Source: Deltaproteobacteria bacterium
GTDB lineage: Bacteria > BMS3Abin14
Direction: 5' to 3'
Assembly (NCBI GenBank): GCA_013151915.1
Contig: JAADHJ010000044.1
Coordinates: forward strand, 329-64,328
Length of the DNA stretch: 64,000 nt
Shown here: piece after piece, positions 582 to 52,384 of the stretch
Layout: the number at the start of each line of letters is the position of its first letter
Position numbering within the stretch: the first letter of the stretch is position 1
The notes under the pieces: model-generated
What the model saw: only the letters and a program-made list of their open reading frames with translations
What the model was told of the DNA's origin: nothing
The model's database searches: none
Translations under genes and position numbers: made by a program

Positions 582-1193
582 CTAGCGAAGCGAACTCTCC
601 ATGGCCGTTTCTTTTCGGAACTTCTGGATCCGATATGATGATCCATCCGGGACCAAAGAACGGATTTTCTCTATATCACGCATTGACAGCAGAGACTCCA
701 CGTTTGTTGTTCGAAACTCATGGGGAACTCCGCTTCCGGCTATAAGGTGGATGCTTTGGAGGATCTTTCCCTCATCAACCTTTATGCCTGCCAGACGGGC
801 ATACAATTCAAGCGGTGCTTTGATGTCCATGGCAATATAGTCAACAAGGCCTTCACCGATCAATTTACCAAGCACATCCGGTCTACTCCCATTTGTGTCG
901 ATTTTTACATCGAGCCCCAAACACTTAAGTTCCTTCAGGAACTCCTCCATGTCAGGCTGAAGTAACGGCTCACCTCCACTGATTACCACACCATCCAGCT
1001 TGTCCGCACGTAGAGCAAGAAATTCTGTCACCAACTTCCGGGAGATCAGATCCCCCGAGGGAGGATTCGGCGGGATTAGTGGCCCATTGTGGCAGAATGG
1101 ACACTGGAAATTACATCCCTGCACAAAAATCACAGCCGCGACTCTCCCGGGGAAATCGCTCAGAGCAAACGGCTGAAAGCCGCCTAGTTTCAC
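582..1193 (-). CDS. nrdG: Anaerobic ribonucleoside-triphosphate reductase activating protein (radical SAM)
   Basis: QGCNFQCPFCHN radical-SAM motif, SGGEP, DTNGS; 4-bp overlap with nrdD. Confidence 0.95.
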   Translation of the reverse strand: MKLGGFQPFALSDFPGRVAAVIFVQGCNFQCPFCHNGPLIPPNPPSGDLISRKLVTEFLALRADKLDGVVISGGEPLLQPDMEEFLKELKCLGLDVKIDTNGSRPDVLGKLIGEGLVDYIAMDIKAPLELYARLAGIKVDEGKILQSIHLIAGSGVPHEFRTTNVESLLSMRDIEKIRSLVPDGSSYRIQKFRKETAMESSLR

Positions 1194-3343: not shown

Positions 3344-3548
3344 ACCCGGCTCCTTTTCTGTGGATGCAGCTGTTCATAGGCGCATCCACTAACGTGTCCC
3401 ACGTCCCCTCGGACGTGACAGTGACCTTTGGAAGAATTTCAGACAGCCGTGAGCTGTGAGGCGGGAATTTCGCAACAGGTCTTCTGCCGGGCTGAACGCA
3501 TCTTCCCTCGAAGGCGACAATCAATATACCGCGCTATCGGCGGGTCGC

Positions 3549-3735
3549 CGGCAGGTCTTCGGACTTGTAGGCGGGTGATCCTCTCGATAGGATCCATTCC
3601 TACTGGCCGCCGCTTCCCAGCCCCTTGGGCCAGTGCTTAATGGCGACGTTCGTTCCTACTTACCGCTGCGGGGCAGTCCCGGATTCTCACCGGGTTCCCT
3701 TGTATAACACTCCGAATAAGGAGCGTACCGGCAAC
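3549..3735 (-). ncRNA. Cobalamin (B12) riboswitch in nrdD leader
   Basis: Minus strand has AGGGAACCCGGTGAGAATCCGGGACTGCCCCGCAGCGGTAA, CACTGG..GGGAAG and the terminal AGTCCGAAGACCTGCC B12 box. Confidence 0.93.
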
Positions 3736-3738
3736 AAA

Positions 3739-3786
3739 ACACTATATATAGTAGTCAGAAGAGAATGTCAATACAAGATAATGTAT
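3739..3786 (-). promoter_or_regulatory. Tandem NrdR boxes overlapping a sigma70 promoter of nrdDG
   Basis: acactatatatagtag (3739-3754) and atacaagataatgtat (3771-3786), 32 bp apart; minus strand TTGACA (3766-3771)-17 bp-TATATA (3743-3748). Confidence 0.85.
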
Positions 3787-8080: not shown

Positions 8081-8240
8081 TTGATAGGATCGTAAAAAAT
8101 CCTTTCGTGGCTTTTTACTCAACGGAAAGCGAAAAGTGTTATTTTCACTTTCCGCCCAAATCAACAACTTGCGCTGCAAGTCATTGCTTTGGGCGCCCTT
8201 CAATGGACGCGTTGATGACTTCCTGAGAAATCATCACTTT
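8081..8240. repeat. Intergenic repeat family B (GATAGGxTCGTAAAAA..TCC), long copy
   Basis: Aligns over about 80 bp with 19679-19760; its 3' part matches the reverse complement of 17062-17131. Confidence 0.8.
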
Positions 8241-18160: not shown

Positions 18161-18185
18161 TTGTATGATGTATACTGTATACAAT
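18161..18185. promoter_or_regulatory. Candidate GntR/FadR operator (repeated GTATAC cores)
   Basis: ttgtatgatgtatactgtatacaa upstream of the tandem gntR genes. Confidence 0.55.
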
Positions 18186-18238
18186 TATTGGACAGGCCGG
18201 CCAGATTACTTCCTATCAACCTAAATTATATCAGGAAA

Positions 18239-18910
18239 ATGAAACTAAAAAAGCACAAAACACTGAGGGAACAGATTGCCACTTCACTTCGGGAGTCTAT
18301 TATCCGAAGGGAGCTTCCTCCAGGACAGAAGCTTACCGAGCCGGAACTTGCGGCCAAACTGGGGATCAGCCGTACCCCCATAAGGGAGGCATTCCGTCAG
18401 CTTGAGAGTGAGGGTTTTCTGGCAGTGATCCCCCGTAGAGGGGCGGTGGTATCCACCATCACCGCCAAACAGGTGGAGGATTTTTACGAGATCAAAAGTC
18501 TTCTGGAGGGATTCGCTGCCCGGGTCGTCGCAGAGAAAATATCGGACAGCGATATCGAAAAACTGAAAAGGGTAAACAGTCAACTGGCCGGATTGGCGGA
18601 AAAGGGGCAGCTCGAGGCGTTTTTCGCCAAGAATAACGACTTCCACAACTATTTCATCAAACTATGCGGAAATGAGAAACTTCTCGAAATTCGGGACGGC
18701 ATGGTGCAAAGATTCAAAGGTTTTCGTATGGCCACGCTGTCCCTGCCCGGGCGGCTGATGGAGTCTGTAAACCAGCATAAGTCTATCATCAGGGCCTTCG
18801 AGAAAAAGGACGGTCGGTTAGCTGAAGCGGTCGTGGTTGAACATGCCCTGCTGGGCGGCGAGGAACTGGTCAAGATGATCAAGAGGATGGAGGAATCCGG
18901 GATCCATTGA
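18239..18910 (+). CDS. GntR-family (FadR/FCD) regulator 1
   Basis: ELAAKLGISRTPIREAFRQLESEG HTH; FCD motifs N..FH, GN..L, H..II.A. Confidence 0.93.
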   Translation: MKLKKHKTLREQIATSLRESIIRRELPPGQKLTEPELAAKLGISRTPIREAFRQLESEGFLAVIPRRGAVVSTITAKQVEDFYEIKSLLEGFAARVVAEKISDSDIEKLKRVNSQLAGLAEKGQLEAFFAKNNDFHNYFIKLCGNEKLLEIRDGMVQRFKGFRMATLSLPGRLMESVNQHKSIIRAFEKKDGRLAEAVVVEHALLGGEELVKMIKRMEESGIH

Positions 18911-19593
18911 AAGATTTCAAGATCAAGATCGAAGAGCCGAAGCTTCTGTCGGAGGATATCGCCGACTCCATAAGAACGGCCATCATCAAAGGAAAGTTCC
19001 GTCCGGGGGAGAAGATATCCGAGGGCGAACTGGCCGATTCCATGGGAATCAGCCGTACCCCTCTCCGGGAAGCGTTCCGGAAGCTGGAAAACGAGGGGTT
19101 CATAGAGATAATCCCACGGAAAGGGGCTGTTGTTACCGAGATCAACCCCGATGAAGCCTTCCAGCTTTACGAGATAAAAAGCACCCTTGAAGGTCTTGCC
19201 GCCCGTCTTGCAGCCTCCCGTATGACAGGGAAGGACATCGAAAAGCTGGAGAAGATCAACGCCGAGCTTGAAAATCTTCAGGCAGCGGATGACCTTGATG
19301 GATTTTACAAAACCCACTGCAGGTTTCATGATGTTTTCGTAAAACTCTGCGGGAACAACCGTCTCATCCAGATGATTTCCAACCTGAACGACCATTTCAA
19401 ACGTTTCAGTGTCGTTTCTCTAACCTTTCCAGGGCAATTTGATGAAGCGGCCAGACAACACAGGGAGATTATTGATGCCTTCCGAAGCGGTGATAAAAGG
19501 AGTATCGAGGCCAAGGTAAGGGAAAACGTTATTACCGGCGGCTTTGTTCTCGTTGAAAATCTCTCCGGAAAAGAGGGTGTTGACCGAAAATAA
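18907..19593 (+). CDS. GntR-family (FadR/FCD) regulator 2
   Basis: ELADSMGISRTPLREAFRKLENEG; TTG start overlaps the stop of regulator 1. Confidence 0.93.
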   Translation: MKDFKIKIEEPKLLSEDIADSIRTAIIKGKFRPGEKISEGELADSMGISRTPLREAFRKLENEGFIEIIPRKGAVVTEINPDEAFQLYEIKSTLEGLAARLAASRMTGKDIEKLEKINAELENLQAADDLDGFYKTHCRFHDVFVKLCGNNRLIQMISNLNDHFKRFSVVSLTFPGQFDEAARQHREIIDAFRSGDKRSIEAKVRENVITGGFVLVENLSGKEGVDRK

Positions 19594-19678: not shown

Positions 19679-19810
19679 ATGATAGGGTCGTAAAAAGTCC
19701 GTTAACGGCTTTTTACTCCACGGAAAGCGAAAAGTGTCATTTTCACTTTCCTCACAAATCTTCGATTTGGGTGCCCCGTAGTAGGCGCATTAGTGTCATT
19801 TTCACTTTCT
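19679..19810. repeat. Repeat family B, long copy
   Basis: gatagggtcgtaaaaagtcc...gaaagcgaaaagtgtcattttcactttc aligns with 8081-8160. Confidence 0.8.
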
Positions 19811-19886: not shown

Positions 19887-22712
19887 TTGAAAAACACTCG
19901 CATGAGCAGAAGAGGCTTCCTGAAAATCGGAGGCGGTCTTCTCCTTACCATCCTGCCTCCCGGCAGGGGAGAGGCATTTCGGGGACCAAAAACCCGTTCC
20001 GTGGTTTATGGCAGCGAAACGCCCAGCCGGTGTCCCCTTTGCTCCATGGGCTGCGGCGTTATTTATTTCAGGGACAGCGATGGACGATGGAACGTGGAAG
20101 GAGACCCGGATTGCCCAGTGGCCATGGGTTCCCTGTGCGCGCGTGGAAATTCTTTGATCGCCGTCACTGATGCCGCGGCATCGGTTGGGGCCCTGCACCG
20201 ATATCCGGGCGAATCCCGTTGGCGGAAGGTTTCCTGGGATGATGCCGTCCATCTGGTCGGGCGGCGGATCAAGGATGTCCGGGACCGTGAAATGAGGGGG
20301 AGAGCCGATTCCAAGGGGTCTTCAAACCGTCTGGAGAACCTTGGGATGATATGCGGAGGGAGCCTGACCAACGAAGAGGCATATCTTCTTGCCAAACTCT
20401 TCCGGTCCATCGGAACCGTCAATATGGATACTACCGTCAGGGCCAGCCGTGGAATGGCTATCCTCGGCCTGTTGAGTGTCCTTGGCCTTCCCGCTCCAAC
20501 CCATCCGCCGACCGATGTTGCCGAAAGCGACCTGGTCATCGTGGCCGGGTGCAACCCGGGCCAGACCGTGCCTGTACTCTCCCGCGCCCTGGACGAGGTG
20601 AGGCGGAGGAGCGGGACGGTGGTGTTTATTGAACCCAGATGGACTGAATCCATTAAAACCGGCGATATCTGGCTCCAGATCCGGCCCGGATGCGATGCTG
20701 CTGTCTTCGGCGGCTTTATCTCATGGATACTCGAACACGGGAAACGCAGGACCGAGGAACTGGTCAAGCATACAGACGCCTCTTTCTCAACTCTGACCGA
20801 GATCATGGGACAGTACCAGCGCTTTACAGGCGGCAAATCCAGGGGTATGCCAAAGAGCGATCCGGAGCTTTCCGGGCCCTATACCATCTATCAGCGATTG
20901 ATACGGCACTACCGCCGATATAACCTGCGGAAAATCGCCGGGATCTCCGGGGTGGATCGGGATCTTTTTCGAAGGGTCTGCAAGGAACTGGTGAGAACGG
21001 GCCGTCAGGAATTCTCCGCCTCTTTTATCCTTGGGGCCGGTGCGTTATGCCGTCCATCGGGATCAGATACCGTTCGTATGGCCGCGATGATTCAGACTCT
21101 GCTGGGAAACCTGAAAAAACGGGGTGGCGGGATCGTTGTTCCATCCGGAGCTGGAAACGCCCAAGGTGTTTGCGACATGGGCCTCCTGGCATCATATCTT
21201 CCCGGCTATCTTCCTCTGCCGTTGGAGGGGACCGATTCCCGTAAAACCGGATTTGGAGGGGAGGACCCGGGCGCCATGGAAGCCCTGGCCAGGGCCTGGT
21301 TCGACAGTAAAAAACCGTCCGAGGCAGTAGGCTTTCTACCTGTAGTGAAAAAGGACGAGGGGATATCCATCAGCACCATCCTCCGTGACGTTGCCAATGA
21401 AAAAATCAAGGTACTGATAGTTATCGGTTCCGACGTGGTCAACAGTTTCCCCGGTGGAAAAACAGTCCGTGGGGCGTTGGAGAAACTAGATCTCCTTGTT
21501 GTTGTTGACACAGCACCCAACGAGACCAGTCTCTTCTGGAAGGAGACCGCCCGTGGGAGTTCCGCCCTTAAGACGGAGGTTATTTTTATCCCCATGGAAC
21601 CCCCGGCCCTTCGTTCCGGAAGCATGACGGATGCGGGAAGAAGGGTCCGCCGTATTGTCCCCGCCCACGGCCTGCCGGAAACGGTTCCTTCTCTTCTCAA
21701 TACCATCACCCGGCTCGGTGTTATCATAAAGAAAATGGCCCGCAGCGAAGGAGGTCCTGGTATCTCTCCGATAACGTCCCTGAGATGGCCCATTTGGGCC
21801 GATCCGGAGGCCGTTGCCAGGGAGATCAACGGGGTAGTGGACGGTGGGGTTGAGGAGGTGACCCCGCTCGGCCCCGGCCGGGACTGGCCCAGGGGGTCGT
21901 CCTGCGGTAACCGTCTCTACCGCGGCCAGGTGACCGATGAGGCGTGGTTGGCCGGGAGAAGGGATTTCTCGGATCCCTACGGCCTCGGACTTTTTGAACG
22001 GTGGGGCTGGTTCTGGCCCTGGGGAATGCCCGATCCGTTTTCCTGGGTCTTTGGCCATGAACGGGACCGGTCCGTACTGCTTCGCTGGTCAGGTTCGCCG
22101 AAGGTCATACCCGATCTGTCAATCCGGTTCTGGAGAATAACAGCAGTGGGTCCACCCTTCCCGGACCACTACGAACCCTTTCACAGCCCCCTTCCCGATT
22201 ATCTGACGGGGGGCAGATCCGACCCGTCAATTGAGAAAATGGACGATAGTTCCGGTCCATGGGACTATCTTTCCAGGAGACCGGAGGATGTGCTGGGTAG
22301 ATTTCCGGTGATCATGACGACCCATCGTACAGGCAACACAATGGGAAGCGGGGGTATCCTGGGGCAGGTGGGGTGGCTCAAGGAGCTGGGAACCGACCGA
22401 ATGCTGGAGATGGGACCGGACATGGCAGCCGAACTGAAGGTGGTCAGCGGCGATGCGGTCGATATTAAAACGCCGTTTGTTACGGAACCTGTCCGTGCCC
22501 TGGCGCTTGTCACTTCCCGTCTGGGGAATTTTGGGTATAATGGGAAGCGTTACCATGTCACTTCCGTTACCGGTTTAAAACCCGGCCGGCCGGGGACCAA
22601 CGAGCTCTTTTCCCCTGTCTTCAACGGCAGGGAGGGAGGCCTGCAGTTGAAAGCATTCATGGTGAAGGTGGAGAAGGCGAAAACAGGAGGACACAATGGC
22701 AAGCTCGAATGA
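19887..22712 (+). CDS. Tat-exported FDH-N alpha-like molybdopterin-oxidoreductase paralogue lacking the Sec/His/Arg catalytic residues
   Basis: SRRGFLK; CPLCSMGC..CARG; collinear with FdnG to the terminal KAFMVKVEKA, but DTTVRASRG replaces EHQARIUHS. Confidence 0.88.
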   Translation: MKNTRMSRRGFLKIGGGLLLTILPPGRGEAFRGPKTRSVVYGSETPSRCPLCSMGCGVIYFRDSDGRWNVEGDPDCPVAMGSLCARGNSLIAVTDAAASVGALHRYPGESRWRKVSWDDAVHLVGRRIKDVRDREMRGRADSKGSSNRLENLGMICGGSLTNEEAYLLAKLFRSIGTVNMDTTVRASRGMAILGLLSVLGLPAPTHPPTDVAESDLVIVAGCNPGQTVPVLSRALDEVRRRSGTVVFIEPRWTESIKTGDIWLQIRPGCDAAVFGGFISWILEHGKRRTEELVKHTDASFSTLTEIMGQYQRFTGGKSRGMPKSDPELSGPYTIYQRLIRHYRRYNLRKIAGISGVDRDLFRRVCKELVRTGRQEFSASFILGAGALCRPSGSDTVRMAAMIQTLLGNLKKRGGGIVVPSGAGNAQGVCDMGLLASYLPGYLPLPLEGTDSRKTGFGGEDPGAMEALARAWFDSKKPSEAVGFLPVVKKDEGISISTILRDVANEKIKVLIVIGSDVVNSFPGGKTVRGALEKLDLLVVVDTAPNETSLFWKETARGSSALKTEVIFIPMEPPALRSGSMTDAGRRVRRIVPAHGLPETVPSLLNTITRLGVIIKKMARSEGGPGISPITSLRWPIWADPEAVAREINGVVDGGVEEVTPLGPGRDWPRGSSCGNRLYRGQVTDEAWLAGRRDFSDPYGLGLFERWGWFWPWGMPDPFSWVFGHERDRSVLLRWSGSPKVIPDLSIRFWRITAVGPPFPDHYEPFHSPLPDYLTGGRSDPSIEKMDDSSGPWDYLSRRPEDVLGRFPVIMTTHRTGNTMGSGGILGQVGWLKELGTDRMLEMGPDMAAELKVVSGDAVDIKTPFVTEPVRALALVTSRLGNFGYNGKRYHVTSVTGLKPGRPGTNELFSPVFNGREGGLQLKAFMVKVEKAKTGGHNGKLE

Positions 22713-23646
22713 AACCGGTTCGAATGCTATCCAGGCCCTCTTTCAGGGGGAAATGGACATGGAGGGAATGGAAGAGGTTCTGGAGCTTTACAGGGCACTT
22801 TCCACCCTCAACGCGAAGGCGCTGAAACCCGGGAAAAAGTTTCATGCACCAGGCGGGGATGAGGCCGAAATGAGGTTGAAGGAAGGGTTCATCCTTCTTC
22901 AGCCCGCCGAGATCATTCCCTCCGAGAAAGCCCTGCTTAACAGGGCCGTGGAGATACTCGAAGTACTAAAGCTCCATTCCGACCACGAGGGTGAAAAAGA
23001 GGAGGCATCGAACCTTCTCGAGGGAAAAGGGCTGTTTCGAAAAATGGTGGAAAATTACCTTGTTGACGGCGAGGACAGGCTTCGGGAAAGGGGCGTCATC
23101 CCTCAGTCCCTCAATTCGGAGGTCGCCCTCTTTACGGTCTTTAACGTCCTGAAGGGAACCTTTAAAGATATATCCCGGGCCTTCGGGAATGTTGACACTT
23201 CAGATTGGGAGCATGGATTCTGTCCCGTCTGCGGGGGAGGTCCCGCTGTTGCGACACTGGAGGGGGAGGGCGGAAAACGACATCTGATCTGCCACAGGTG
23301 TGAGACCAAGTGGCGTTTTGGAAGGATCCTGTGCCCTTTCTGCGGGAACAGCGACCACGAGAAGCTGGGGTTCTTCACTCTGGAAGACGGGGACAGCAGG
23401 CTGAGGGTGGATTTCTGCAATAGTTGCAGGGGATACATAAAAACGTGGGAAACAGGCGAGGATGACAATGGCCATCCGGAGGTGGAGGATCTCAAGACTC
23501 CCGGCTACGATCTGGCCGCGGAAGGGGAAGGGTACAGGAGAGGCGCCCCCAATATTTTCGGTGTCTGGGTTGGTTTTGACCTGGATGATGGGAGTAAGCC
23601 GGATGATGACCCGCCTGATCCGGAACGTGTTCCCCGGTCTTCATAA
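22696..23646 (+). CDS. fdhE: Formate dehydrogenase maturation protein
   Basis: CPVCG, CHRC..W...R..CPFCG, CNSC.GY.K. Confidence 0.92.
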   Translation: MASSNETGSNAIQALFQGEMDMEGMEEVLELYRALSTLNAKALKPGKKFHAPGGDEAEMRLKEGFILLQPAEIIPSEKALLNRAVEILEVLKLHSDHEGEKEEASNLLEGKGLFRKMVENYLVDGEDRLRERGVIPQSLNSEVALFTVFNVLKGTFKDISRAFGNVDTSDWEHGFCPVCGGGPAVATLEGEGGKRHLICHRCETKWRFGRILCPFCGNSDHEKLGFFTLEDGDSRLRVDFCNSCRGYIKTWETGEDDNGHPEVEDLKTPGYDLAAEGEGYRRGAPNIFGVWVGFDLDDGSKPDDDPPDPERVPRSS

Positions 23647-24023
23647 GGCTGTGAACATGGTCCTCACAACATAGTGCAGACTATGCGCCGGTTTTTTGCC
23701 AAAACATGGTTTTAGTGGTTGAAATTGATAATTTGATGGGGTAAAATTTATCTATAAAAATCGCTGAATACCAAATAGCTGACTTCCGATCCTGTTGCGT
23801 CCTACCGGGATGGGCAGGACGATAGGGTGCGGGGAGCAATCGCCGTGCCTGCCGTTTTTTGCAAAGGAAGCCGTGACAAGGTCATGGCTTCCTTCTGTTT
23901 TTTGGAGGGGTTTTTTCTGGACGGAACGGATCCAGGGAGAAGGGAGGTGAGCCCTGGAGATAATAGTGCGATCGGTCCCGAAAAAAGCTTGGACCTGTTA
24001 TTAACCGTGAGGAAAGGAAGGTG

Positions 24024-27000
24024 ATGACAAGGATGAATGTTACCAGGAGAGATTTTTTAAAGATCTCCGGCGTCGGTGTGTCCGGTGCGGCGTTAGGAGG
24101 ACTCGGTCTTCGTGGTACATCCATGGCCGGGGCCAGAGGCGGTAATACGGCCATCAAGTACTCCAGGGAGTCGACCTCCATCTGTCCCTTCTGTGCCGTC
24201 GGATGCGGTCTTATTATCCAGGCCCACAACGGCAAGGTCGTCTACATTGACGGCGATCCGGATCATCCGATCAACGAGGGATCCCTATGCTCCAAAGCGC
24301 AGGCTGTGCGCCATGTCTCCGACAGCCCGTGGCGCATCACCAAGCCCCTGTACCGGGCCCCGAAGAGGGGGGAATGGAAAGAGGTCAGCTGGGACTGGGC
24401 CTACAGTGAGATTGCCAAGAGGATAAAAAAGAGCCGCGACGCGGGCTTTACCAGGATCAATGCCGGCGGACAGGTAGTCAACCGGAACGACGGGATTGCT
24501 TCGGTGGGTTCCGCAGCCCTCGACAACGAGGAGTGCTACATCCTTCAGAAGTGGCTCCGAGCACTGGGCCTGGTGTATATCGAACATCAGGCAAGGATAT
24601 GACACAGCGCTACTGTAGCGGCTCTGGCAGAGTCGTTCGGACGCGGCGCAATGACAAACCACTGGATCGACATCCGCAATTCGGATGTTATCCTGATCAA
24701 CGGCTCCAACGCCGCTGAGAACCATCCTATCTCATTCAAGTGGGTCAATAAGGCGCTGGAGAACGGCGCCAAGCTTATCAGTGTTGACCCGAGGTTTACC
24801 CGGACCTCCTCCAAGGCTGATATTTACGCCCCCATGAGGTCGGGAACGGATATCGCCTTCCTGGGCGGGATGATCAAGTACATCCTTGACAACGAGCTTT
24901 TCCACAGAGATTACGTGCGGATGTACACCAACGGCCCGTTCATCGTTAACGCAGGCTTCAAAATGCCGGGCGACCTGGACGGAGTGTTCTCCGGCTACGA
25001 TCCCAAGAAGAGGAAGTACGACAAGAAGGCGTGGGCCCTCGTGAAAGACGGCAAGGGCGTAATTAAAAAGGATCCCGGTATGAAGGATCCAATGTGCGTT
25101 CTCCAGCTTCTTAAAAAGCAATTCTCACGCTATACCCTGGATAAGGTGTCGGCCATCTGCGGCACACCCAAGGAAAAGCTGTTGGAGGTCTACAAAACCT
25201 ACGTCTCTACGGGAAAGCCCACCCGGACGGGCACTATCATGTACGCCATGGGGTGGACCCAGCATACGGTGGGTACTCAGAATATCCGGACCATGGCCAT
25301 AATCCAGCTCCTGCTGGGCAATATCGGGATGTCGGGCGGCGGCGTTAACGCCCTGAGGGGTGAATCCAACGTTCAGGGTTCCACGGACCACTGCCTGCTG
25401 TTTCACATCCTGCCGGGCTATCTGAAGACCCCGAGGGCCAAGGACTCCTCCTTCGCCAGGTACAATAACGCCTATACCCCCAAGACCAGTGAGCCCTATT
25501 CGGCCAACTGGTGGTCCAATTACCCGAAGTACAGCGCAAGCCTGCTCCGGGCGCACTTCGGAAAAAGCGCCTCTCTGGAGACCCAGTACCAGTGGCTGCC
25601 GAAGCTTGACAACGGACAGAACGCCTCCTGGCTGATGCTCTTCGACGAGATGTACAAGGGCAAGTTCACGGGATTCTTCGCCTGGGGACAGAACCCGGCA
25701 TGTTCCGGCGCCGATTCCGCCAAGACCCGCCAGGCCCTGACAAAGCTGGACTGGATGGTCAACGTTAACCTGTTCGACAACGAAACCGGCTCTTTCTGGC
25801 GCGGTCCCGGAATGGACCCTTCCCAGATCAAGACGGAGGTCTTCTTCCTGCCCTGCGCCATGTCCTTCGAGAAGGAGGGAAGCATCACCAACAGCGGCCG
25901 CTGGGGCCAGTGGCGATATGCCGCGGCGCCACCTCCGGCACCACCCGATTCGGAGCTTCTCAATGAACTCCAGTTCCGGGTTAAAAAGCTGTACCAGGAA
26001 CAGGGCGGCGTCTTCCCCGATCCCATCCTGAACATGACCTGGGATTACGGCCCCAAGGGACCCGACGGCAAAGTGCGCCGCATGGATACCCACCTCATCG
26101 CCAAGGAGATCAACGGGTATTTCCTCGAGGAAAGGACCATTAAGGGCAAAACCTACAAACCCGGCGACCTCGTACCGTCCTTCGGTTTTCTGCAGGCCGA
26201 TGGGTCCACTTCGTCGGGCAACTGGCTCTACTCCCAATCCTACAACGGCAACGGTAACAATATGGCCCGCCGGGGCAAGTCCGATCCCACGGGCACCGGC
26301 CTTTATAACGGCTGGTCCTGGTGCTGGCCCGTCAACCGGCGGATCATCTATAATCGCGCCAGCGTCGACGAGTACGGCAAGCCCTGGGCTCCCCAGAAGC
26401 CGGTCATCTACTGGAACGGCGCGAAATGGGTTGGTGACGTTCCTGACGGCGGGTGGCCGCCCCTGCGGAAACCTGATGGAACGTGGAACGAAAAGACCAA
26501 GCTGGCCTACATCATGAAACCCGAGGGTGTTTCCAGGCTCTTCGGTCCGGGCCGTGCGGATGGACCATTCCCCGAGCACTACGAGCCCTTGGAGAGTCCC
26601 CTCGAGAAAAACCTCATGAGCCCACAGAGGGTCAACCCGGCGATCAAGATTTTCTCGGGGAAACTCGATCAGTTCCTTAACGACGACGACCGCTATCCAC
26701 TCGTCGCCACGACCTACCGGCTCACGGAGCACTGGCAGACGGGTGTGCTGACCCGCTGGCTGCCCTGGCAGGTCGAAATGCAGCCTGCCAACTTCGTAGA
26801 GATAAGCGAGGAGCTCGCCAAGGAAAAGGGTATCGGAAACGGGGACAAAGTCGTTGTCTCCTCCGCCCGTTCAAGCGTGGACGCGGTTGCCCTGGTGACG
26901 AAGCGCTTCACACCGTTCAAGATCGCGGGTGCCATCGTGCACCAGGTGGGTCTGCCCTGGTGCTTCGGATGGGCCACCACCAAGGAAAACGACGTCATGG

Positions 27001-27128
27001 CCAACGGCAAAGTGTACACCAACCACACTTTCGGCGATTCTTCCAACCTGTTGACTCCATTCGTTGGGGATGCCAACACAATGATTCCTGAGACGAAGGC
27101 CTTCATGGTCAACGTCAAGAAGGCATAG
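24024..27128 (+). CDS. fdnG: Selenocysteine-containing formate dehydrogenase alpha subunit (TGA at 24600-24602 read as Sec)
   Basis: TRRDFLK Tat signal, CPFCAVGC..CSK, EHQARI-U-HSATVAALAESFGRGAMTNHW in frame across the TGA, ALRGESNVQG; selA and selB nearby. Confidence 0.96.
24603..24640 (+). promoter_or_regulatory. Bacterial SECIS element
   Basis: Hairpin GGCTCT-GGC-AGAGTC (24620-24634) with G in the loop, starting 17 nt after the UGA. Confidence 0.7.
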
Positions 27129-27144: not shown

Positions 27145-27933
27145 GTGGCTGAGAAAATGATAGTAATCGATACATCCAAATGCATGGCCTGCCGCGGCTG
27201 CCAGACAGCCTGCAAGCAGTGGAATAACCTTTCGGCGGTGGTAACGGAAAATCACGGCAGCTACGAGAACCCCCCGGACCTCTCCTACAACACCTACACC
27301 AGGATACTTTTCAACGAGGTGGAGACGGATGGAGGTCTGCGCTGGTTCTTCGGCCAGGCCCGGTGCATGCACTGCTCGGATGCCGGGTGCATGAAGGCCT
27401 GCCCGGTCCCCGGCGCCATTACCCGCGACGGCAATGGGGCTGTCGTTATCAATCAGGATGTTTGCACCGGCTGCAAGTACTGTGTCTTCGGGTGCCCGTT
27501 CAACGTCCCGCGTTTCGATAGGGGTAACGCAGAGGGCGCCGGCGTGGATAAGGCGTTCAAGTGCACCATGTGCTTTGACCGCCAGTCCATGGGAATGGAG
27601 CCGGCATGCACCAAAACATGTCCTACGGGTGCTCTTTTCTTTACCCGCAGCTCCAAACTTCCGGCCGTCAAAGCCATGGCCAAGGAAAAGGGACTTACGG
27701 TATACGATGGCGGGGCACTGAACACCCACGTAGTCGTTCTCCTGGAGGACAAACCTTCGGTTTACGGGCTCCCCGACAAACCGGCCATCCCCACGTCGAC
27801 CTATCTGTGGCGGTCGGTCATGAAGCCTCTTGGTGTCGTAGTCTTCCTGGCGGGAGTATTCGCGGCCATTGCCCATTTCGTGACCATTGGACCTCAGGAA
27901 GCCGATGAGGAAGGAGGTGACAGCGATGTCTAA
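27145..27933 (+). CDS. fdnH: Formate dehydrogenase iron-sulfur (beta) subunit
   Basis: Four CxxCxxC motifs (CMACRGC, CMHC..C..ACP, CTGCKYC..CP, KCTMC..PAC..TCP); C-terminal TM. Confidence 0.94.
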   Translation: MAEKMIVIDTSKCMACRGCQTACKQWNNLSAVVTENHGSYENPPDLSYNTYTRILFNEVETDGGLRWFFGQARCMHCSDAGCMKACPVPGAITRDGNGAVVINQDVCTGCKYCVFGCPFNVPRFDRGNAEGAGVDKAFKCTMCFDRQSMGMEPACTKTCPTGALFFTRSSKLPAVKAMAKEKGLTVYDGGALNTHVVVLLEDKPSVYGLPDKPAIPTSTYLWRSVMKPLGVVVFLAGVFAAIAHFVTIGPQEADEEGGDSDV

Positions 27934-28528
27934 ACATCTTATTAAGCGCTATACCTCCGGTGAGAGGTTCTTCCACTGGCTCAATATGCTGGCCTTCATC
28001 GTGCTGGCCCTGACCGGATTGGGGCTTTACAGCCACAAATTCTTCTGGCTAACGGGTGTTTTCGGCGGGGTGGACATGTCCAGGGGTATTCACCATTACA
28101 CAGGATTGGTGTTCATTGTGACGACCTTCATCATCTTCTTCCAGTGGATGAAGGACTACACCACACCTGGCCAGGATTCCCTGGGGATCGTCATCAAGGA
28201 GTATATGGACCCGTCTTTCCATGGCCCTGACGCAGGCAAGCTTAACGCCGGCCAGAAGTCCCTCGGTTGGACGGTTTTCCTGCTCGGCCTGCTCATGGGC
28301 GCAACAGGGTTGGCCTTGTGGTTCCCCTTCACCTTGGGGCGTGGACTTCAGCAGTGGATGTACTTCCTCCACAACCTTGGATTCATCTTCTTCATGCTGG
28401 CAATGATCGCGCATGTGTACATGGGAACCGCTGCCAATCCCGGAACCTGGAGGGCCATGACCAAAGGTACGGTTACCAAGGCCTGGGCCAAAAAACACCA
28501 TGGCGCCTGGGAAGGCGAAGAAGTGTAG
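27926..28528 (+). CDS. fdnI: Formate dehydrogenase cytochrome b (gamma) subunit
   Basis: ER.FHW, IHH, GKLNAGQK, LHN, HVYM, AMTKGTV..WAKKHH..W. Confidence 0.93.
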   Translation: MSKHLIKRYTSGERFFHWLNMLAFIVLALTGLGLYSHKFFWLTGVFGGVDMSRGIHHYTGLVFIVTTFIIFFQWMKDYTTPGQDSLGIVIKEYMDPSFHGPDAGKLNAGQKSLGWTVFLLGLLMGATGLALWFPFTLGRGLQQWMYFLHNLGFIFFMLAMIAHVYMGTAANPGTWRAMTKGTVTKAWAKKHHGAWEGEEV

Positions 28529-29054: not shown

Positions 29055-29158
29055 CTTTTTTTCTGTTTTCCCGAGTGGTTCCTTGACAAGTAGCAGTCCG
29101 TATTGGACTATTGATTCTTACACCGGTTGTTGAATGTTCTCCATATAAAGGACCATCG

Positions 29159-30580
29159 ATGCCCTCGGAAAACAACAGAAAAAACCTTCTTCGCCACCTT
29201 CCCAAGGTGGACCAGGTCCTGGCACGTGCAGCCCTTTCGTTCTCCTCACCCGCAATTGCCCCGCGCATCGTAAAGGACGCGGTGAGAGAGGAGATCTGTT
29301 TTCTCAGGGAAAGGGTCCTTTCGGGGGAGATCACCGAACCGGGACTGCTTTCCATCGATGTCGTCGCTGACGGTGCGAAAAGGCGGGCGGCGGTTAAGAA
29401 TGTTCCCCGGCTGCGCAGGGTCATCAACGCCACCGGAGTGGTCATTCACACCAACCTGGGCCGCAGTCCTCTGCCCGATAAGGCCGTTCGGCAGATGCAG
29501 CTGGCCGCCTCGGGATACTCCAACCTCGAATACAGCCTTAAAGAAGGAAAGCGTGGCTCCAGGGACGATCTCATTGAAGGGCTTCTGAGCGAGATCACGG
29601 GGGCGGAAGCCGCCACGGTAGTCAACAATAACGCAGCGGCCGTAATGTTGGTCCTCAATACCCTTGCGGCCGGATGTGGAGTGGTTGTCTCGCGGGGTGA
29701 ACTGGTTGAGATCGGCGGTTCTTTCCGCATACCCGACGTCATGTCCGCCAGCGGGGCCCGTCTTCTGGAAGTGGGGACCACCAACCGCACGCGCATAGGT
29801 GATTATCGCCAGGCTGTCGATGAGAACACAGCGCTTCTACTAAAGGTCCATACCAGCAACTACAGTATCGTCGGCTTTTCAGAGGAAGCAAGTGTCAAGG
29901 ACCTTGTCGTACTTGGACGGGAAAAGGGAATTCCGGTCATGGTGGACCTGGGCAGCGGTTGTCTCCTGGATGTCAGGACCCTGGGGCTGTCGCACTACGA
30001 GCCCACCGTTATGGATGTCCTGAAGGCGGGGGCCGATGTGGTTACCTTCAGCGGCGACAAACTCCTGGGGGGACCTCAGGCGGGCGTTATTCTTGGGAAA
30101 GCTTCCACAATACAACGCATTCGGAAGAATCCCATGAAACGCGCGCTTCGGTGCGGGAAAATAACCCTGGCGGCCCTTGAGGCTGTCCTGAAAATCTATC
30201 TGAACCCCGAGACCGCCGTTGGGAACTTGCCCATACTGAGGATGATCACGGCGAGCAGGAGTTCCGTTTCCCGCCGGGCCCATCGGTTTGCGGATCGCCT
30301 TAAGGATCTTCCGGCCCAGGTGTCCTTCCTTCCTGCATTATCAAAGGTCGGCGGCGGCTCCCTTCCCCTGGAGGAGATGCCCACCGTCCTCCTGGCCCTG
30401 GAGACCGAGGCGCTTTCCGCGCAGGATTTTGAGGCCCGGCTGAGGGAACAGGATCCGCCTGTGATAGGGCGTATCGTGGAGGATCGGGTGTGCCTGGACT
30501 TCAGGACCGTTTTGCCGAGAGAACTGGGGGAACTGGAACGAGCCATAAGGGGAGCGATCGGTTTCCGGGAAAACACGTAG
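29159..30580 (+). CDS. selA: L-seryl-tRNA(Sec) selenium transferase
   Basis: [55 protein letters not shown]. Confidence 0.97.
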
Positions 30581-30592
30581 AGCCGGTAATAT

Positions 30593-32542
30593 ATGACCGA
30601 TACCCGAACGCATATCATAATAGGCACCGCCGGCCACATAGACCACGGCAAGACCTCCCTCGTCCGATCCCTCACCGGGTTTGACACGGATCGACTCAAG
30701 GAGGAGAAGGAACGTGGAATTACCATTGAACTCGGGTTTGCTCCACTGACCCTGCCTTCAGGATTACGCGTCGGGCTGGTGGACGTTCCCGGGCACGAGC
30801 GGTTCGTACGGAACATGGTCGCCGGGGCCACCGGAATTGACCTTGTACTCCTTGTTATTGCCGCCGATGAAGGTGTCATGCCTCAGACCAGGGAGCACCT
30901 TGATATCTGCCGGCTCCTTGAAACAAGGGGTGGAATGGTAGTGCTCACCAAGGTCGACATGGTTGAGCCTGATTGGCTCGAGATGGTAACGGAAGATGTC
31001 AGGGAATACCTGTCGGAGACCTTTCTGTGCGACGCACCGATTATCCCCTTTTCGGCCGTTGACGGCACAGGTAAAGAGGAACTCCTCAGGGCGATGGACG
31101 AAGCGGCCATGCTGGTTCCCGGAAAGAACCTCGAAGGAGTTTTCCGCCTGCCGGTGGATCGTGTCTTCTCCATGAAGGGGTTCGGCACTGTGATAACAGG
31201 AACCCTTATCTCCGGGAAGGTAGCGCTGGGCGAGGAGGTAAACTTCTTCCCCGAGGGCAGGAGGGCGAAAGTTCGCGGCATCCAGGTTCACGGCGAACAG
31301 GTCCGGGAGAGTTCCGCGGGCACTCGCACGGCATTGAATCTTCAGGGAATCGAAAAAGGACAGATCCGCCGAGGGGAAACCGCGGCCCATGCGGGTTCAC
31401 TTATTCCAACCTATCTTCTTGATACCCATGTCAGGCTTTTATCCTCCGCACCGAGGCCCCTGAAAAATCGCAGCCGGGTGCGTCTCCATCTTTACACCTC
31501 CGAAATAATGGCCCGAGTTGTCCTGCTGGAGAAAGAAGCCCTCGATCCAGGGCAGGAGGCGTTGGCACAGATACGCCTGGAAGCGTCGGCGGTTGCTCAG
31601 CCGGGCGACAGGTTTGTCCTCCGCAGCTATTCTCCAATCACCACCATCGGTGGAGGAGTTGTACTGGACCCGGCGCCGGCGAAGCACCGGCGCATGCGGC
31701 AGACGGTTATCGCCCATCTGACACGCCTGCAGACGGATGATCCAGGCAAGAGGATGGAAGCTCTATTGGATGAGGCAGGTGATTACGGTGGGACGGCCGG
31801 AGTCATCGGGATCAGGGCGGGTGTTTCCGTACCTGGGGCCATCGGGCTGTTGCGGGACCTTGAGGCTGAAGGAAAGGCTGTGCTCATTGGCGATGGTGCC
31901 GGGGCTCTTGCCTACTCCTCGACGTCCTTCGATGGTCTGAAAGACCGGCTTGTCAAGGTTCTCGACGTTTTTCACCAGGCGCACCCCCTTAAAAAGGGCA
32001 TGGGGAGGGAGGAGCTCCGGATGAAGTTCGCGAGCATGTTGCCCGATCGGCCCTACAAAAATCTCCTGTCGGCCCTTGGGAAAAAAGACGTGATCGGGGT
32101 TGAGGGGGACACTGTCTTCCTCAGGGCCCACACCGCTGCATTTACCCCCGAGCAGGAGGAGTTGGCGAAGAGGGCCGCCTTGATTCTTGACGCCGCCGGC
32201 CTGTCAACCCCCTTCGTTCCCGATCTTGCCGGGGACCTGGCCGTGGATATAGGCCATCTGAAAGCCGTTCTCGGCCTCATGTCCGAAAGGGGCGATGCGG
32301 TCAGAGTCAAAGACGACTTCTATATCCATCCCGATGCCAACAGGACCCTTATGGAAAAGGTGGACAGCTATTTCGCATCCAATACCGAACTCTCCATGAA
32401 AGGGTTCCGGGAGATCGCCGATACCAGCAGGAAGTGGATGATTCCCCTCCTTGAGTACCTGGACAGGATGCAGGTAACCATGAGGAAAGGAGACGTGCGC
32501 ATAAAGCGCGGCGGCACGCAGAAGGGAGGAAGAGCCTCATGA
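30593..32542 (+). CDS. selB: Selenocysteine-specific elongation factor
   Basis: [31 protein letters not shown]-terminal winged helices [13 protein letters not shown]. Confidence 0.97.
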
Positions 32543-33774
32543 TCCAGGTATCGGAGGCAAGGAGGATTATTCTGGAAAACACTCATGTCGGTGGGGTGGA
32601 GGTCGTGCCCCTGACCGATTGTCTGGGACGGGTTCTCGCCGAAGCCGTCCATGCCTGCCGTGATGTTCCCCCCATGGATAACTCGGCCATGGACGGATTT
32701 GCCCTGAACGCCGCCCAATCCACCGGGGCCTCTGAAGCCGCACCTGTCTTTATCCCCGTGTCCCGGACAATCAGGGCCGGTGATGAGCCCGGGGCTGCCG
32801 TGGGTTCCCATGAGGCTGTGAAAATCATGACTGGAGCCCCGATCCCGGATGGCGTGGATTCGGTGGTGCGGGTTGAAGACACATCCTTTAAGGACGATTA
32901 CCTCGTTCTCGGCAAACCCCTGGGGGTAGGCGATAACATCCGCGCCGCCGGCGAGGACATCGCCTCCGGGTCCGATATCCTGAAACCGGGAAGATGCCTC
33001 AATCCGGCCGACATGGGCCTTGTGGCCTCCCAGGGGATCGCCCAGCTGACCGTCTACAGAAGACCTACGGTAGCCATTCTTGCCACCGGGGATGAGGTGG
33101 TTGACCTGGGTGAGATTCCCCGCGATGCTCAGATATTCAGCAGCAACTCCTATACCCTGATGGGCCTTGTCCAAGAATGTGGGGCCATTCCCCGCGTGTT
33201 GGGCATATCCCCGGATGATCCCGCCCAAATGGCCGGAATGATCCGGGAAGGGCTGACTTCGGATGTGGTCGTTACATCCGGGGGGGTGTCCATGGGGGAT
33301 TACGATTTCCTGAAGGACGTACTCGAGGAGATAGGCGCCAGGGTCCTCTTCTGCAGGGTCGCCCAGAAACCGGGCAAGCCCATGACCTTCGGCGTTATGG
33401 GCTGGAAACCCATATTCGCCCTTCCGGGCAACCCCGTATCCGCTGCCCTGTCCTTCGAACTCTACGCCCGTCCGGCCATCAGGAAGATGATGGGCCACAC
33501 CAGACTTTTCAGACCCACAATTCAGGCACTTATGGAGCAGAGCATCAGAAAGAAAAAAGGCCGTAGAAATTTTATCCGAGGCATAGTAGAGAGAAAGGAT
33601 GGAATATTTTACGTGAGAACAACGGGTAAGCAGGGATCCGGGATACTGCGGTCAATGTCCTCCGCAAACGGGATTATTATTCTATCCGAGGACGTTGACG
33701 GTGCCGAGGCCGGTCAACCAGTCGATGTGTACCTGCTGAACAGTGATGATGTGCTCCTGGAAGGGGGCGTTTGA
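32539..33774 (+). CDS. moeA: Molybdopterin molybdenumtransferase
   Basis: SAMDGFA, IMTGAPIP, ATGDE, TSGGVSMGD, KPGKP, LPGNPVS. Confidence 0.95.
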   Translation: MIQVSEARRIILENTHVGGVEVVPLTDCLGRVLAEAVHACRDVPPMDNSAMDGFALNAAQSTGASEAAPVFIPVSRTIRAGDEPGAAVGSHEAVKIMTGAPIPDGVDSVVRVEDTSFKDDYLVLGKPLGVGDNIRAAGEDIASGSDILKPGRCLNPADMGLVASQGIAQLTVYRRPTVAILATGDEVVDLGEIPRDAQIFSSNSYTLMGLVQECGAIPRVLGISPDDPAQMAGMIREGLTSDVVVTSGGVSMGDYDFLKDVLEEIGARVLFCRVAQKPGKPMTFGVMGWKPIFALPGNPVSAALSFELYARPAIRKMMGHTRLFRPTIQALMEQSIRKKKGRRNFIRGIVERKDGIFYVRTTGKQGSGILRSMSSANGIIILSEDVDGAEAGQPVDVYLLNSDDVLLEGGV

Positions 33775-35770: not shown

Positions 35771-38604
<2,834 letters not shown>

Positions 38605-51417: not shown

Positions 51418-51445
51418 TGGGGTCAAAGCTCAGATTCTCAGGTTT
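51418..51445. repeat. 28-bp inverted repeat, downstream arm of the RAYT gene
   Basis: tggggtcaaagctcagattctcaggttt; overlaps the stop codon. Confidence 0.92.
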
Positions 51446-52289
51446 CGAGGGCCTTGATGATTTGGCAAAGATAGTTGGGGTTCATACTCAGGTGTGACGC
51501 GATTTCCTTCAGTGGATATTTATATGTTCGGTAGGCCTGGAGGATAGCCTGATTCCTCAGTTTTCTGGAACCGTTCATTCCACTGAATACTTCAGCCAAA
51601 GGAAGCCTTCCAGTACTAAGTTGTGTGTTGTTGATACCGGTTTTTTGATTCATGGGTCCATACTGCTTCAGGATGTTTTTGATAAACTCATCTGACCCAA
51701 GAAAGAGTTGAAAGCGGATGTCAAGCTTTGTCCTGAAACCATCCATGTCCGCCTCCACAAAACGGACGTAATTCTCCCTGGCCTTTTTAACAGTGAAGCC
51801 GAACTGTTCCAGGAGCCAGCCCGTCGTTAATAACGGCGGTGTTTTGACCAGCCCGGCGGTAGCGCCGTAACTGCTCCATGGCCACCCGCTCGGGTGTTCG
51901 ACAAGCTTTGCGTCCCATGGATTTAGAGCAATGTACCGGCAGCAGTGGAGGAGGTAGGTATCCTTCTGAACAATGATGGCTTTGTAACGCCCCTGAAGGA
52001 CATGACCGACCCGATGGTACTTGTAGTTGAAGAATTGGGTGTAGACCTGATTAAGATACTTCATCCCTTTGGCCAGGTTGGCATCAGGAGTTTCAATGAG
52101 GAGGTGGTAATGGTTTCCCATGAGACAATAGGCGTGGCAGAGCCAAGTGAAGCGTTTAATGGTCTTATGGAAAATATTGAGGAACTTGATGCGGTCGGCA
52201 TCGTCATGAAAGATCATCATCTGCGCATTTCCTCTGCTCATGATATGATAAAGAGCACCCTCATACTGGATCCTCAACTGGCGTGCCAT
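51438..52289 (-). CDS. REP-associated tyrosine (HUH/Y1) transposase with C-terminal HTH
   Basis: MARQLRI...YHI.SRGN, AYCLMGNHYHLL, GHVLQGRYKA, YI.LNP, WSSY; RBS GGGAGG. Confidence 0.92.
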   Translation of the reverse strand: MARQLRIQYEGALYHIMSRGNAQMMIFHDDADRIKFLNIFHKTIKRFTWLCHAYCLMGNHYHLLIETPDANLAKGMKYLNQVYTQFFNYKYHRVGHVLQGRYKAIIVQKDTYLLHCCRYIALNPWDAKLVEHPSGWPWSSYGATAGLVKTPPLLTTGWLLEQFGFTVKKARENYVRFVEADMDGFRTKLDIRFQLFLGSDEFIKNILKQYGPMNQKTGINNTQLSTGRLPLAEVFSGMNGSRKLRNQAILQAYRTYKYPLKEIASHLSMNPNYLCQIIKALET

Positions 52290-52353
52290 AGCCGCTTGCC
52301 TCCCTGTTGAATGGGTATGGCAGGTAATAAGCAAAACCAGGGCCAAAAGGGAA

Positions 52354-52381
52354 AAACCTGAGGATCTGAGCTTTGACCCCA
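52354..52381. repeat. 28-bp inverted repeat, upstream arm of the RAYT gene
   Basis: aaacctgaggatctgagctttgacccca; 27/28 complementary to 51418-51445. Confidence 0.92.
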
Positions 52382-52384
52382 TAT

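Follow-up and report, generated by a model that had tools for sequence, protein, structure and literature searches.

An FdnG-like paralogue without the catalytic residues of formate dehydrogenase, encoded next to fdhE and a selenocysteine formate dehydrogenase

Upstream of fdhE and the genes of a selenocysteine (Sec)-containing formate dehydrogenase (FDH; FdnGHI), the 64,000-nucleotide stretch of contig JAADHJ010000044.1 analyzed here (the window) harbours a second gene for an FdnG-like alpha subunit, in which the catalytic residues of FDH are replaced. This raises the question of what such a protein (alpha-prime, encoded by fdnG-prime) can still do. An earlier note on the window had proposed either a pseudo-enzyme or a Ser-ligated Mo/W enzyme with another substrate. 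The results indicate that alpha-prime is, with high probability, a functional and conserved protein which is not a formate dehydrogenase despite its annotation. Its sequence suggests that it derives from a periplasmic FDH, is old and lineage-restricted, and almost certainly no longer oxidizes formate. As the favoured, though tentative, reading, alpha-prime may represent a non-formate head, which has kept the cofactor scaffold and the [4Fe-4S] cluster FS0, is proof-read by FdhE, is exported via the twin-arginine translocation (Tat) pathway and docks on FdnH/FdnI.

Translation of fdnG-prime (Table 1) would start from TTG, 5 nt downstream of a GGAGG motif; use of an alternative internal ATG at position 19,902 would yield a product of 936 amino acids. 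As stated in the earlier note, the 941-residue frame is free of stops, contains a Tat motif and a full 4Fe-4S motif, and is collinear with the neighbouring Sec-containing FdnG (274 identities in 906 columns of a pairwise alignment, 30 %). The alignment also bears out the replacements described there, i.e., ARI-U-H by VRA-S-R, the catalytic Arg motif ALRGESN by VPSGAGN, and GWTQH, RLTEHWQ and AENHP by GALCR, RTGNTMG and GQTVP, respectively. With 375.7 bits, the whole protein does not reach the cutoff of the TIGR01553 family model (814.2 bits), whereas the post-Sec part of the neighbouring FdnG alone scores 1112.8 bits. Models of Ser-type relatives match even less (dmsA_ynfE, 44 bits vs a cutoff of 778; bisC, 19 bits). 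An AlphaFold2 model (predicted local distance difference test, pLDDT, 84; predicted template modelling (TM) score 0.90) was obtained from an input alignment of 32 family sequences and 14 distant relatives; a model from the 32 family sequences alone (pLDDT 54) was discarded. Foldseek comparison of the former yields TM scores of 0.82 to Escherichia coli FdnG (1KQF_A) and 0.85 to the tungsten-containing FdhA of Desulfovibrio vulgaris (DvFdhA). The four-domain MopB fold, the Tat signal and the four-Cys FS0 of periplasmic FDH alpha subunits are thus all present. Public records label the homologues of alpha-prime as "formate dehydrogenase-O major subunit precursor".

The family of alpha-prime is narrow and confined to one lineage. 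Among 5.8 billion proteins searched, 32 protein clusters share 47–100 % identity with alpha-prime, followed by a sharp gap to ordinary FDHs (≤28 %). Of 1.84 billion representatives at 50 % identity, all of which were searched with a profile, a single one belongs to the family (1489 bits); the score drops to 528 bits for the next match, and the family is therefore regarded as narrow. All sources are uncultured metagenome-assembled genomes (MAGs): "bacterium BMS3Abin14", "Proteobacteria bacterium SZUA-178/-204" and the complete MAG chromosomes CP070698 and CP070719. The frame is uninterrupted in at least 14 independent loci, and about 150 alignment columns are invariant throughout the family. 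These include the RR pair of the Tat motif, which is also invariant in related FDHs, and Arg86 behind the fourth FS0 cysteine; the FS0 cysteines themselves are present in all full-length members.

Estimates of dN/dS (omega; Nei-Gojobori method) agree with the view of the earlier note that the paralogue is intact. Between the window and its closest relative (locus L002), omega of fdnG-prime is 0.15 at a dS of 0.63, as compared to 0.09 for fdnG, 0.15 for fdnH, 0.17 for fdnI and 0.20 for fdhE, which indicates purifying selection. Other unsaturated pairs yield similar values (L014 vs L016, omega 0.16 at dS 0.18; L011 vs L014, 0.19 at dS 0.32). Low omega also applies to loci with other residues at the position of Sec: 0.17 for L008 vs L009 (both Gly; dS 2.38, saturated), 0.07 for L013 (Gly) vs L001 (dS 2.45, saturated) and 0.10 for L010 (Cys) vs L004 (dS 1.28). 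Homologues with an intact triad and a dN/dS near 1, which the earlier note had named as signs of recent decay, do not occur in the family. The mean Kimura distance between loci decreases from fdhE (0.89) via the paralogue (0.73), fdnI (0.44) and fdnH (0.32) to fdnG (0.19), i.e., the paralogue diverges about 3.8 times faster than FdnG. An origin as recent duplicate of the neighbouring fdnG was rejected, since the latter is only about 27–30 % identical, the same as distant FDHs. In a neighbour-joining tree, calculated without bootstrap and possibly affected by long-branch attraction, the family falls outside all FdnG-type clades.

At the position of Sec, 29 of the 32 clusters carry Ser, two Gly and one Cys. 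Gly is found in loci L008 and L009 (GGC) as well as L013 (GGG), and Cys (TGC) in L010. As the two different codons show, Gly was gained at least twice. The Ser codons are AGC or AGT, from which a single change leads to TGC (Cys) or GGC (Gly), and the codon states around this position are best explained by single steps from a Cys (TGC) ancestor, not from Sec (TGA). Direct conversion of Sec to Ser by a single TGA to TCA change was rejected, since the family uses AGC/AGT. At the next position, 23 clusters carry His, eight Arg (the clade of the window) and one Tyr, corresponding to the pairs S-H (23), S/G/C-R (8) and S-Y (1). Hence, the S-R pair of the window is not conserved across the family, S-H being the majority state. 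The catalytic Arg (R446 in E. coli) is replaced by Ala, Val, Thr or Ser in all members, and none of them possesses the full Cys/Sec-His-Arg triad. Since Ser, Gly and Cys all occur at the ligand position while purifying selection persists, an indispensable bond between Ser and Mo/W is unlikely, weakening the Ser-ligated enzyme proposed earlier.

Is the cofactor site as a whole lost together with the triad? Contact residues of the cofactor bis-MGD (MGD, molybdopterin guanine dinucleotide) in E. coli FdhH, which we take to be those of its 1997 crystal structure, were compared to the fdhF translation for residue identity only, which was correct at 45 of 49 positions; the four wrong ones were dropped. 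The contacts were then mapped through a 49-sequence alignment and divided, by our own assignment, into dinucleotide-anchoring and metal-proximal positions. All 13 anchoring positions at the guanosine and phosphate arms (N176, D202-P203-R204, G221, G296, G298, G402, D404, T408, D429, R581 and K679; FdhH numbering) are kept in the family, nearly all of them near-invariantly. All seven positions at the metal and dithiolenes are replaced (U140, H141, R333, Q335, F302, D179 and H585, the latter four corresponding to H448, H415, E235 and H900 of E. coli FdnG). Out of 161 FDH-conserved columns, 91 are retained, 25 are swapped for another conserved residue (e.g., N215 to H206, R264 to E254 and E854 to H766) and 45 are variable. 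These 25 swaps, among them new conserved polar residues at FDH-invariant sites (H206, Q210, E254, D516, D582 and H766), point to a remodelled rather than a merely relaxed site.

The cofactor-less NuoG of E. coli served as control. It keeps FS0-type cysteines and has lost the anchoring motifs (N to D, DPR to AQK, G221 to K, G298 to N, K679 absent). Between FS0 and the pterin, where FDHs have Lys, the alpha-prime family invariantly carries Arg, a replacement that NuoG shares. Taken together, alpha-prime has kept the Tat signal, FS0, a basic residue between FS0 and the pterin site and the residues for the guanine arms of bis-MGD, and has lost the reactive shell of the metal, which comprises Sec/Cys, Arg446, the motifs TQH and EHW and, in most cases or in part, His. 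This pattern fits, without proving it, a dinucleotide/pterin-binding protein with a rebuilt metal environment. A NuoG-like protein devoid of cofactor, the other possibility raised in the earlier note, loses weight from the retention of the anchoring residues that NuoG lacks.

The chromosomal context links alpha-prime to the true FDH. All 13 loci with enough flanking sequence are arranged alike: dciA on the opposite strand is followed by one or two genes for GntR/FCD regulators, then by the paralogue, fdhE, the Sec-encoding fdnG, fdnH and fdnI, and often by selA-selB. The earlier note had described the paralogue as coupled to fdhE. The linkage is conserved, fdhE being the gene downstream of the paralogue in every locus with flank. 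The 17-bp overlap of both genes is real and results from an extension of the paralogue by about 10 C-terminal codons; this overlap, and with it translational coupling, is limited to the window, and gaps of about 60–260 bp are found elsewhere. FdhE matches PF24859 and PF24860 above gathering thresholds and contains four rubredoxin-like CxxC motifs (C176/179, C199/202, C213/216 and C241/244). Its score against the TIGR01562 equivalog model (65.9) is below the cutoff (187.65), so that the N-terminal domain is divergent. The adjacent FDH is a true Sec-enzyme, as the earlier note had it: an in-frame TGA lies in the ARI-U-H motif, and the TIGR01553, FdnH and FdnI models agree. Exactly one in-frame TGA is present in fdnG of all seven orthologues extracted. 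Among the open reading frames (ORFs) scanned in the window, no second beta or gamma gene was found, leaving FdnH as the sole beta subunit nearby; likewise, no omeB/NrfD-, hydrogenase (hup)- or rdh-type genes were found among them.

Partial rate correlations, with the other genes regressed out, are highest for the paralogue and FdhE (0.70), followed by FdnG–FdnI (0.52) and paralogue–FdnH (0.50); they are taken as a hint only, because pairwise distances are non-independent and saturation alone may correlate fast genes. FdhE and its orthologues represent the fastest-evolving gene of the cluster, with a rate that covaries most with that of the paralogue.

Regulation probably divides the locus into two parts. 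The spacer between fdhE and fdnG contains a P3-less aptamer for the molybdenum or tungsten cofactor (Moco/Tuco, RF01055), a feature that the earlier note did not include and that would set the control of one alpha gene apart from that of the other. The aptamer overlaps with an intrinsic terminator, the 5' arm of which (AAGGAAGCC...) is identical to the 3' strand of aptamer stem P1. Ten of the 13 loci (the window and nine others) have this arrangement in the fdhE-fdnG spacer. P3-less Moco RNAs were tied to users of the tungsten cofactor (Regulski et al., PMC2408646). Since the same bases are needed for P1 and for the terminator, cofactor binding should block termination, and the riboswitch of the fdnG leader is predicted to respond to the cofactor as an ON switch. 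Neither a riboswitch nor another known RNA (Rfam) was found 5' of the paralogue in the window, and RF01055 is never located there in the other loci. Therefore, the Sec-FDH alone would be cofactor-gated, with alpha-prime and FdhE outside: the riboswitch probably gates fdnGHI, and the paralogue and fdhE would form a separate unit with own promoter and leader beside the GntR regulators.

What, then, could alpha-prime do? According to the tentative reading as alternative head, alpha-prime would be folded and loaded with cofactor in the cytoplasm, where FdhE from the shared transcript would proof-read it before Tat export. FdhE binds periplasmic FDH alpha subunits and presumably proof-reads their Tat export (PMC10609526), fitting a role in serving both Tat-signalled alpha subunits of the locus. 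In the periplasm, alpha-prime would dock via FS0 on the sole available FdnH/FdnI module to form an alternative alpha-prime-beta-gamma complex. There, it might function as electron-transfer or structural module or turn over a non-formate substrate, comparable to OmeA on HupX/OmeB (see below). The unit of fdnG-prime and fdhE would be transcribed from its own promoter, outside the tungsten-cofactor ON-riboswitch supposed to gate fdnGHI. While the sequence features, the conservation throughout the family, purifying selection, synteny, the riboswitch and the fold have been demonstrated, we infer cofactor binding, a chaperone function of FdhE and docking on FdnHI.

Several observations weigh against this reading. 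The dinucleotide-binding domain IV (Pfam PF01568) was not detected in alpha-prime, and a catalytic subunit loaded with cofactor would not usually diverge as fast as it does. The nucleotide-anchoring motifs could be kept for stability of the fold instead of cofactor binding, and the position outside the cofactor riboswitch may mean that the paralogue needs no cofactor. In addition, the contrast of anchoring and metal-proximal residues depends on our own classification, and the covariation of rates on non-independent distances.

Three of these points (rate, missing PF01568, position outside the riboswitch) also speak for a cofactor-less pseudo-enzyme with FS0 only, serving together with FdhE as scaffold or as assembly/export partner of the true FDH. 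Such a protein might stabilize or escort FdnH or occupy membrane sites, with NuoG, ActB, QrcB and FhcB as parallels. Complete loss of the reactive shell, tolerance of Ser, Gly or Cys at the ligand position and the NuoG-like Arg between FS0 and the pterin site agree with it, and cofactor-less MopB members are well documented (PMC10100899). This explanation is nevertheless doubtful: the motifs lost by NuoG stay near-invariant across a family spanning 47–100 % identity, the 25 swapped sites acquired new conserved residues instead of drifting, and a chaperone-like role fits poorly with Tat export to the periplasm.

A further step would be a new periplasmic Mo/W-bis-MGD enzyme, the metal of which is either weakly ligated by Ser-O or free of protein ligands, and which converts a non-formate substrate and delivers or draws electrons via FdnHI. 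It overlaps with the reading as alternative head and only adds catalysis. The retained cofactor scaffold, FS0 and basic bridging residue as well as the new conserved polar set are in accord with it. Sharing of one beta/gamma pair has a parallel in E. coli, where two paralogous alpha subunits encoded in one cluster, YnfE and YnfF, use the single pair YnfGH. MopB enzymes without protein ligand also exist (arsenite oxidase AioA, iodate reductase IdrA; PMC10100899). However, the genomic context suggests no substrate, as transporter or pathway genes beyond the FDH set are missing; moreover, the high evolutionary rate and a variable ligand position with His, Arg or Tyr next to it are unusual for a tuned active site. 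A new enzyme of this kind is therefore considered unlikely. Equally unlikely, if conceivable, is the related proposal that alpha-prime is a genuine W/Mo-bis-MGD protein without obligatory amino-acid ligand, serving as a second, non-formate head on the FdnH/FdnI of the Sec-FDH.

Continued function as formate dehydrogenase or CO2 reductase with an unconventional active site is very improbable. The public annotation, the fold and the closest structures are those of FDHs, but no family member possesses Sec/Cys together with Arg446, the window protein lacks His in addition, and the score of 375.7 bits stays far below the 814-bit cutoff of TIGR01553. Furthermore, replacement of Sec by Ser renders E. 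coli FdhH inactive (PMC3160892). A decaying duplicate or an assembly or annotation artefact, for which the missing catalytic residues and the faster evolution relative to the neighbour could be quoted, can practically be dismissed in view of the intact 941-codon frame, at least 14 independent intact loci, omega values of 0.07–0.19, about 150 invariant columns and a tree position outside the FdnG-type clades that speaks against a recent copy.

Table 1 Positions of genes, protein motifs and regulatory elements in the window and in further loci
Feature	Locus	Position	Strand	Remarks
fdnG-prime	window	19887–22712	+	TTG start, 941 aa, no internal stops
Tat motif SRRGFLK of fdnG-prime	window	19905–19925	+	from translation
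FS0 [4Fe-4S] motif C49-x2-C52-x3-C56...C84 of fdnG-prime	window	20031–20138	+	Arg86 after fourth Cys, Lys there in FDH
Ser187 of fdnG-prime (Sec position)	window	20445–20447	+	codon AGC
Arg188 of fdnG-prime (His position)	window	20448–20450	+	codon CGT
Ser420 of fdnG-prime (catalytic Arg position)	window	21144–21146	+	from alignment to FdnG
GntR/FCD regulator 1	window	18161–18910	+	Pfam GntR and FCD; 5' of paralogue in 11 loci
GntR/FCD regulator 2	window	18907–19593	+	Pfam GntR and FCD; in all loci with upstream flank
18-mer AGTGTCATTTTCACTTTC, first exact copy	window	19733–19750	+	leader/promoter region of paralogue
18-mer AGTGTCATTTTCACTTTC, second exact copy	window	19792–19809	+	leader/promoter region of paralogue
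18-mer AGTGTCATTTTCACTTTC, third match	window	8135–8152	+	1 mismatch
fdhE	window	22696–23646	+	Pfam FdhE_central and FdhE_C; PDB 2FIY, E=2e-13
Sigma-70-like promoter for fdnGHI	window	23719–23747	+	TTGAAA-17-TAAAAT, 10/12 consensus matches, consensus scan only
Moco/Tuco aptamer RF01055, P3-less	window	23772–23885	+	41.1 bits vs gathering threshold 36; fdhE-fdnG spacer
Intrinsic terminator	window	23864–23903	+	14-pair stem and T run
fdnG (Sec)	window	24033–27128	+	in-frame TGA at 24600–24602 in ARI-U-H; His and Arg kept
Hairpin after fdnG TGA	window	24607–24649		
fdnH	window	27145–27933	+	four-cluster beta subunit, C-terminal transmembrane helix; Fer4_11, Form-deh_trans, TIGR01582
fdnI (cytochrome b gamma)	window	27887–28528	+	Ni_hydr_CYTB; TIGR01583, 131 bits vs cutoff 116
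selA, selB, moeA	window	29111–33774	+	Sec insertion, Mo/W insertion
fdhD	window	37810–38604	+	FDH sulfurtransferase/cofactor chaperone; Pfam FdhD-NarQ, E=6e-81
nrdG-like radical-SAM activase gene	window	582–1193	-	
nrdD	window	1190–3343	-	
Cobalamin riboswitch RF00174	window	3533–3747	-	110 bits
ORF with IS200/Y1 transposase domain	window	51438–52391	-	317 aa
RF01055	L001	14094–14206		
RF01055	L002	13947–14059		
RF01055	L004	13535–13648		
RF01055	L005	14345–14457		
RF01055	L007	7886–7996		
RF01055	L010	7253–7365		
RF01055	L013	4434–4546		
RF01055	L015	14127–14239		
RF01055	L016	11711–11822		
Group II intron	L002	18857–19945		RF02001
Locus of protein P0035	L090	10001–15404		

The leader of fdnG-prime contains two exact copies of the 18-mer AGTGTCATTTTCACTTTC at a distance of 59 bp. 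A third match is located in the divergent spacer between a gene for a periplasmic binding protein and rsmA, adding up to three matches in the window vs 0.01 expected by chance. The 18-mer may represent an operator for the GntR regulators or an element resembling repetitive extragenic palindromes (REP). A 317-residue ORF with IS200/Y1 transposase domain, longer than typical IS200 TnpA, may encode a REP-associated tyrosine transposase, possibly related to these repeats. The paralogue leaders (from the second gntR to the start) of nine loci (L001, L004–L007, L009, L011, L015 and L016) share the conserved promoter TTGATT-N17-CATTAT and, behind it, an A-rich/U-rich hairpin in which compensatory changes occur. 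Tandem heptamer arrays (GTGAACN, TGGAACN, TTGAACC) together with inverted copies are present in this region of many loci.

Further features of the window concern Sec insertion and other riboswitches. The hairpin behind the fdnG TGA occupies a position like that of a Sec insertion sequence; its stability does not exceed that of shuffled sequence (z = -0.75), and no conclusion is drawn from it. No tRNA genes, and hence no selC, were found in the 64-kb window, although selA, selB and the Sec-FDH are present. A cobalamin riboswitch precedes nrdD and the gene for an nrdG-like radical-SAM activase, i.e., the set for anaerobic ribonucleotide reductase. The closest relative, a BMS3Abin14-like contig, carries a group II intron with an ORF for a reverse transcriptase/maturase in the spacer of fdnI and selA; the window lacks this intron.

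Metagenomes contain other FdnG-like proteins without triad. In the case of P0035 (ARDSS/LLTSS), the locus includes a dedicated FdnH-like beta subunit and a third, unknown gene (387 aa), and looks like that of a separate, uncharacterized three-subunit complex. Further triad-less representatives are P0046, P0048, P0049, P0054, P0056, P0059, P0062, P0064, P0069, P0070, P0076 and P0083. Judging from the many triad-less clades in the profile search, the "periplasmic FDH" family conceals a considerable number of proteins with uncharacterized chemistry.

If two heads indeed share the membrane module, one respiratory complex would operate with interchangeable heads, alpha-prime under GntR-type control and alpha under that of a tungsten-cofactor riboswitch, providing an independent view of what Ser-type "FDH-like" proteins such as OmeA do. 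Ser-substituted "FDH-like" alpha subunits have been known in Dehalococcoides for two decades, and the role of a molybdopterin-type subunit there is a puzzle. The present family, which occurs independently in a further uncultured lineage, offers cleaner comparative data: Sec-FDH, beta/gamma subunits, FdhE, FdhD and Sec machinery are found side by side, the shell of the active site is remodelled on a kept scaffold, and a cofactor riboswitch would place both alpha genes under separate control. The family also represents an annotation trap. Because public records call its members formate dehydrogenases, counting them as such overestimates the formate-oxidizing capacity in metabolic reconstructions.

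Compared to known systems, alpha-prime shares the domain order, fold, Tat signal, FS0, most dinucleotide motifs and the association with FdhE with E. coli FdnG (1KQF) and the W/Sec-containing FdhA of D. vulgaris. Unlike these, it lacks Sec/Cys, Arg446 and (in the window) His197, with TQH and EHW replaced; it is only about 30 % identical to periplasmic FDH alpha subunits, about 70–90 residues shorter and reaches less than half of the family cutoff. Both Ynf alpha subunits, in contrast, keep the catalytic ligand, belong to the DmsA clade and use a DmsD-type chaperone. Ser-ligated enzymes of the DmsA/TorA/BisC type carry an invariant Ser, unlike the alpha-prime family with its Gly (L008, L009, L013) and Cys (L010) variants. 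The small non-ligating residue at the ligand position is reminiscent of AioA and IdrA, which retain Mo-bis-MGD; these differ by their MopB clade, a [3Fe-4S] cluster, a Rieske partner, absence of sequence affinity and a Foldseek TM score of about 0.57. NuoG/Nqo3, ActB, QrcB and FhcB likewise combine the MopB fold with absence of a catalytic metal ligand, but belong to other complexes, NuoG and FhcB being cytoplasmic. NuoG also shares the FS0-equivalent cluster and the Arg behind the fourth Cys, but lost the anchors of the N176, DPR, G221, G298 and K679 type which the alpha-prime family keeps.

The closest parallel, judged by published descriptions, is OmeA of Dehalococcoides and Dehalogenimonas (DET0187/CbdbA195), an FdnG homologue that carries Ser where others have Sec/Cys and that stems from hosts unable to use formate (PMC3160892, PMC5736913, PMC10772276). 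In the organohalide-respiration complex, OmeA provides the large subunit of the central module, OmeA-HupX-OmeB (PMC3160892, PMC6258894, PMC10772276), where it sits on the four-cluster beta-like HupX and carries a "putative bis-MGD site" of unknown role (PMC10772276). A deep-sea Chloroflexi genome encodes an OmeA-like and a Sec-containing alpha subunit in one fdn cluster (PMC5736913). A Ser-type match (P0073) was rejected as OmeA candidate, since a search with it returned only ordinary FDHs. The literature search retrieved no described FdnG paralogue coupled to fdhE. Nevertheless, the designation as undescribed system in the earlier note was too strong in view of OmeA (PMC3160892, PMC5736913, PMC10772276): a Ser-type, formate-inactive FdnG homologue on a beta-type wire is already described as a kind, and alpha-prime resembles it as Tat-exported FdnG homologue with Ser at the position of Sec/Cys. 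What is new relative to OmeA is the lineage (BMS3Abin14-like MAGs instead of Dehalococcoidia), the partners (fdhE and a cytochrome-b-type FdnGHI, predicted to be riboswitch-gated, instead of the NrfD-type anchor OmeB with HupX/HupSL/RdhAB in a quinone-free chain), an FS0 with four Cys as opposed to the [3Fe-4S] cluster predicted for OmeA, and the regulation split by a riboswitch.

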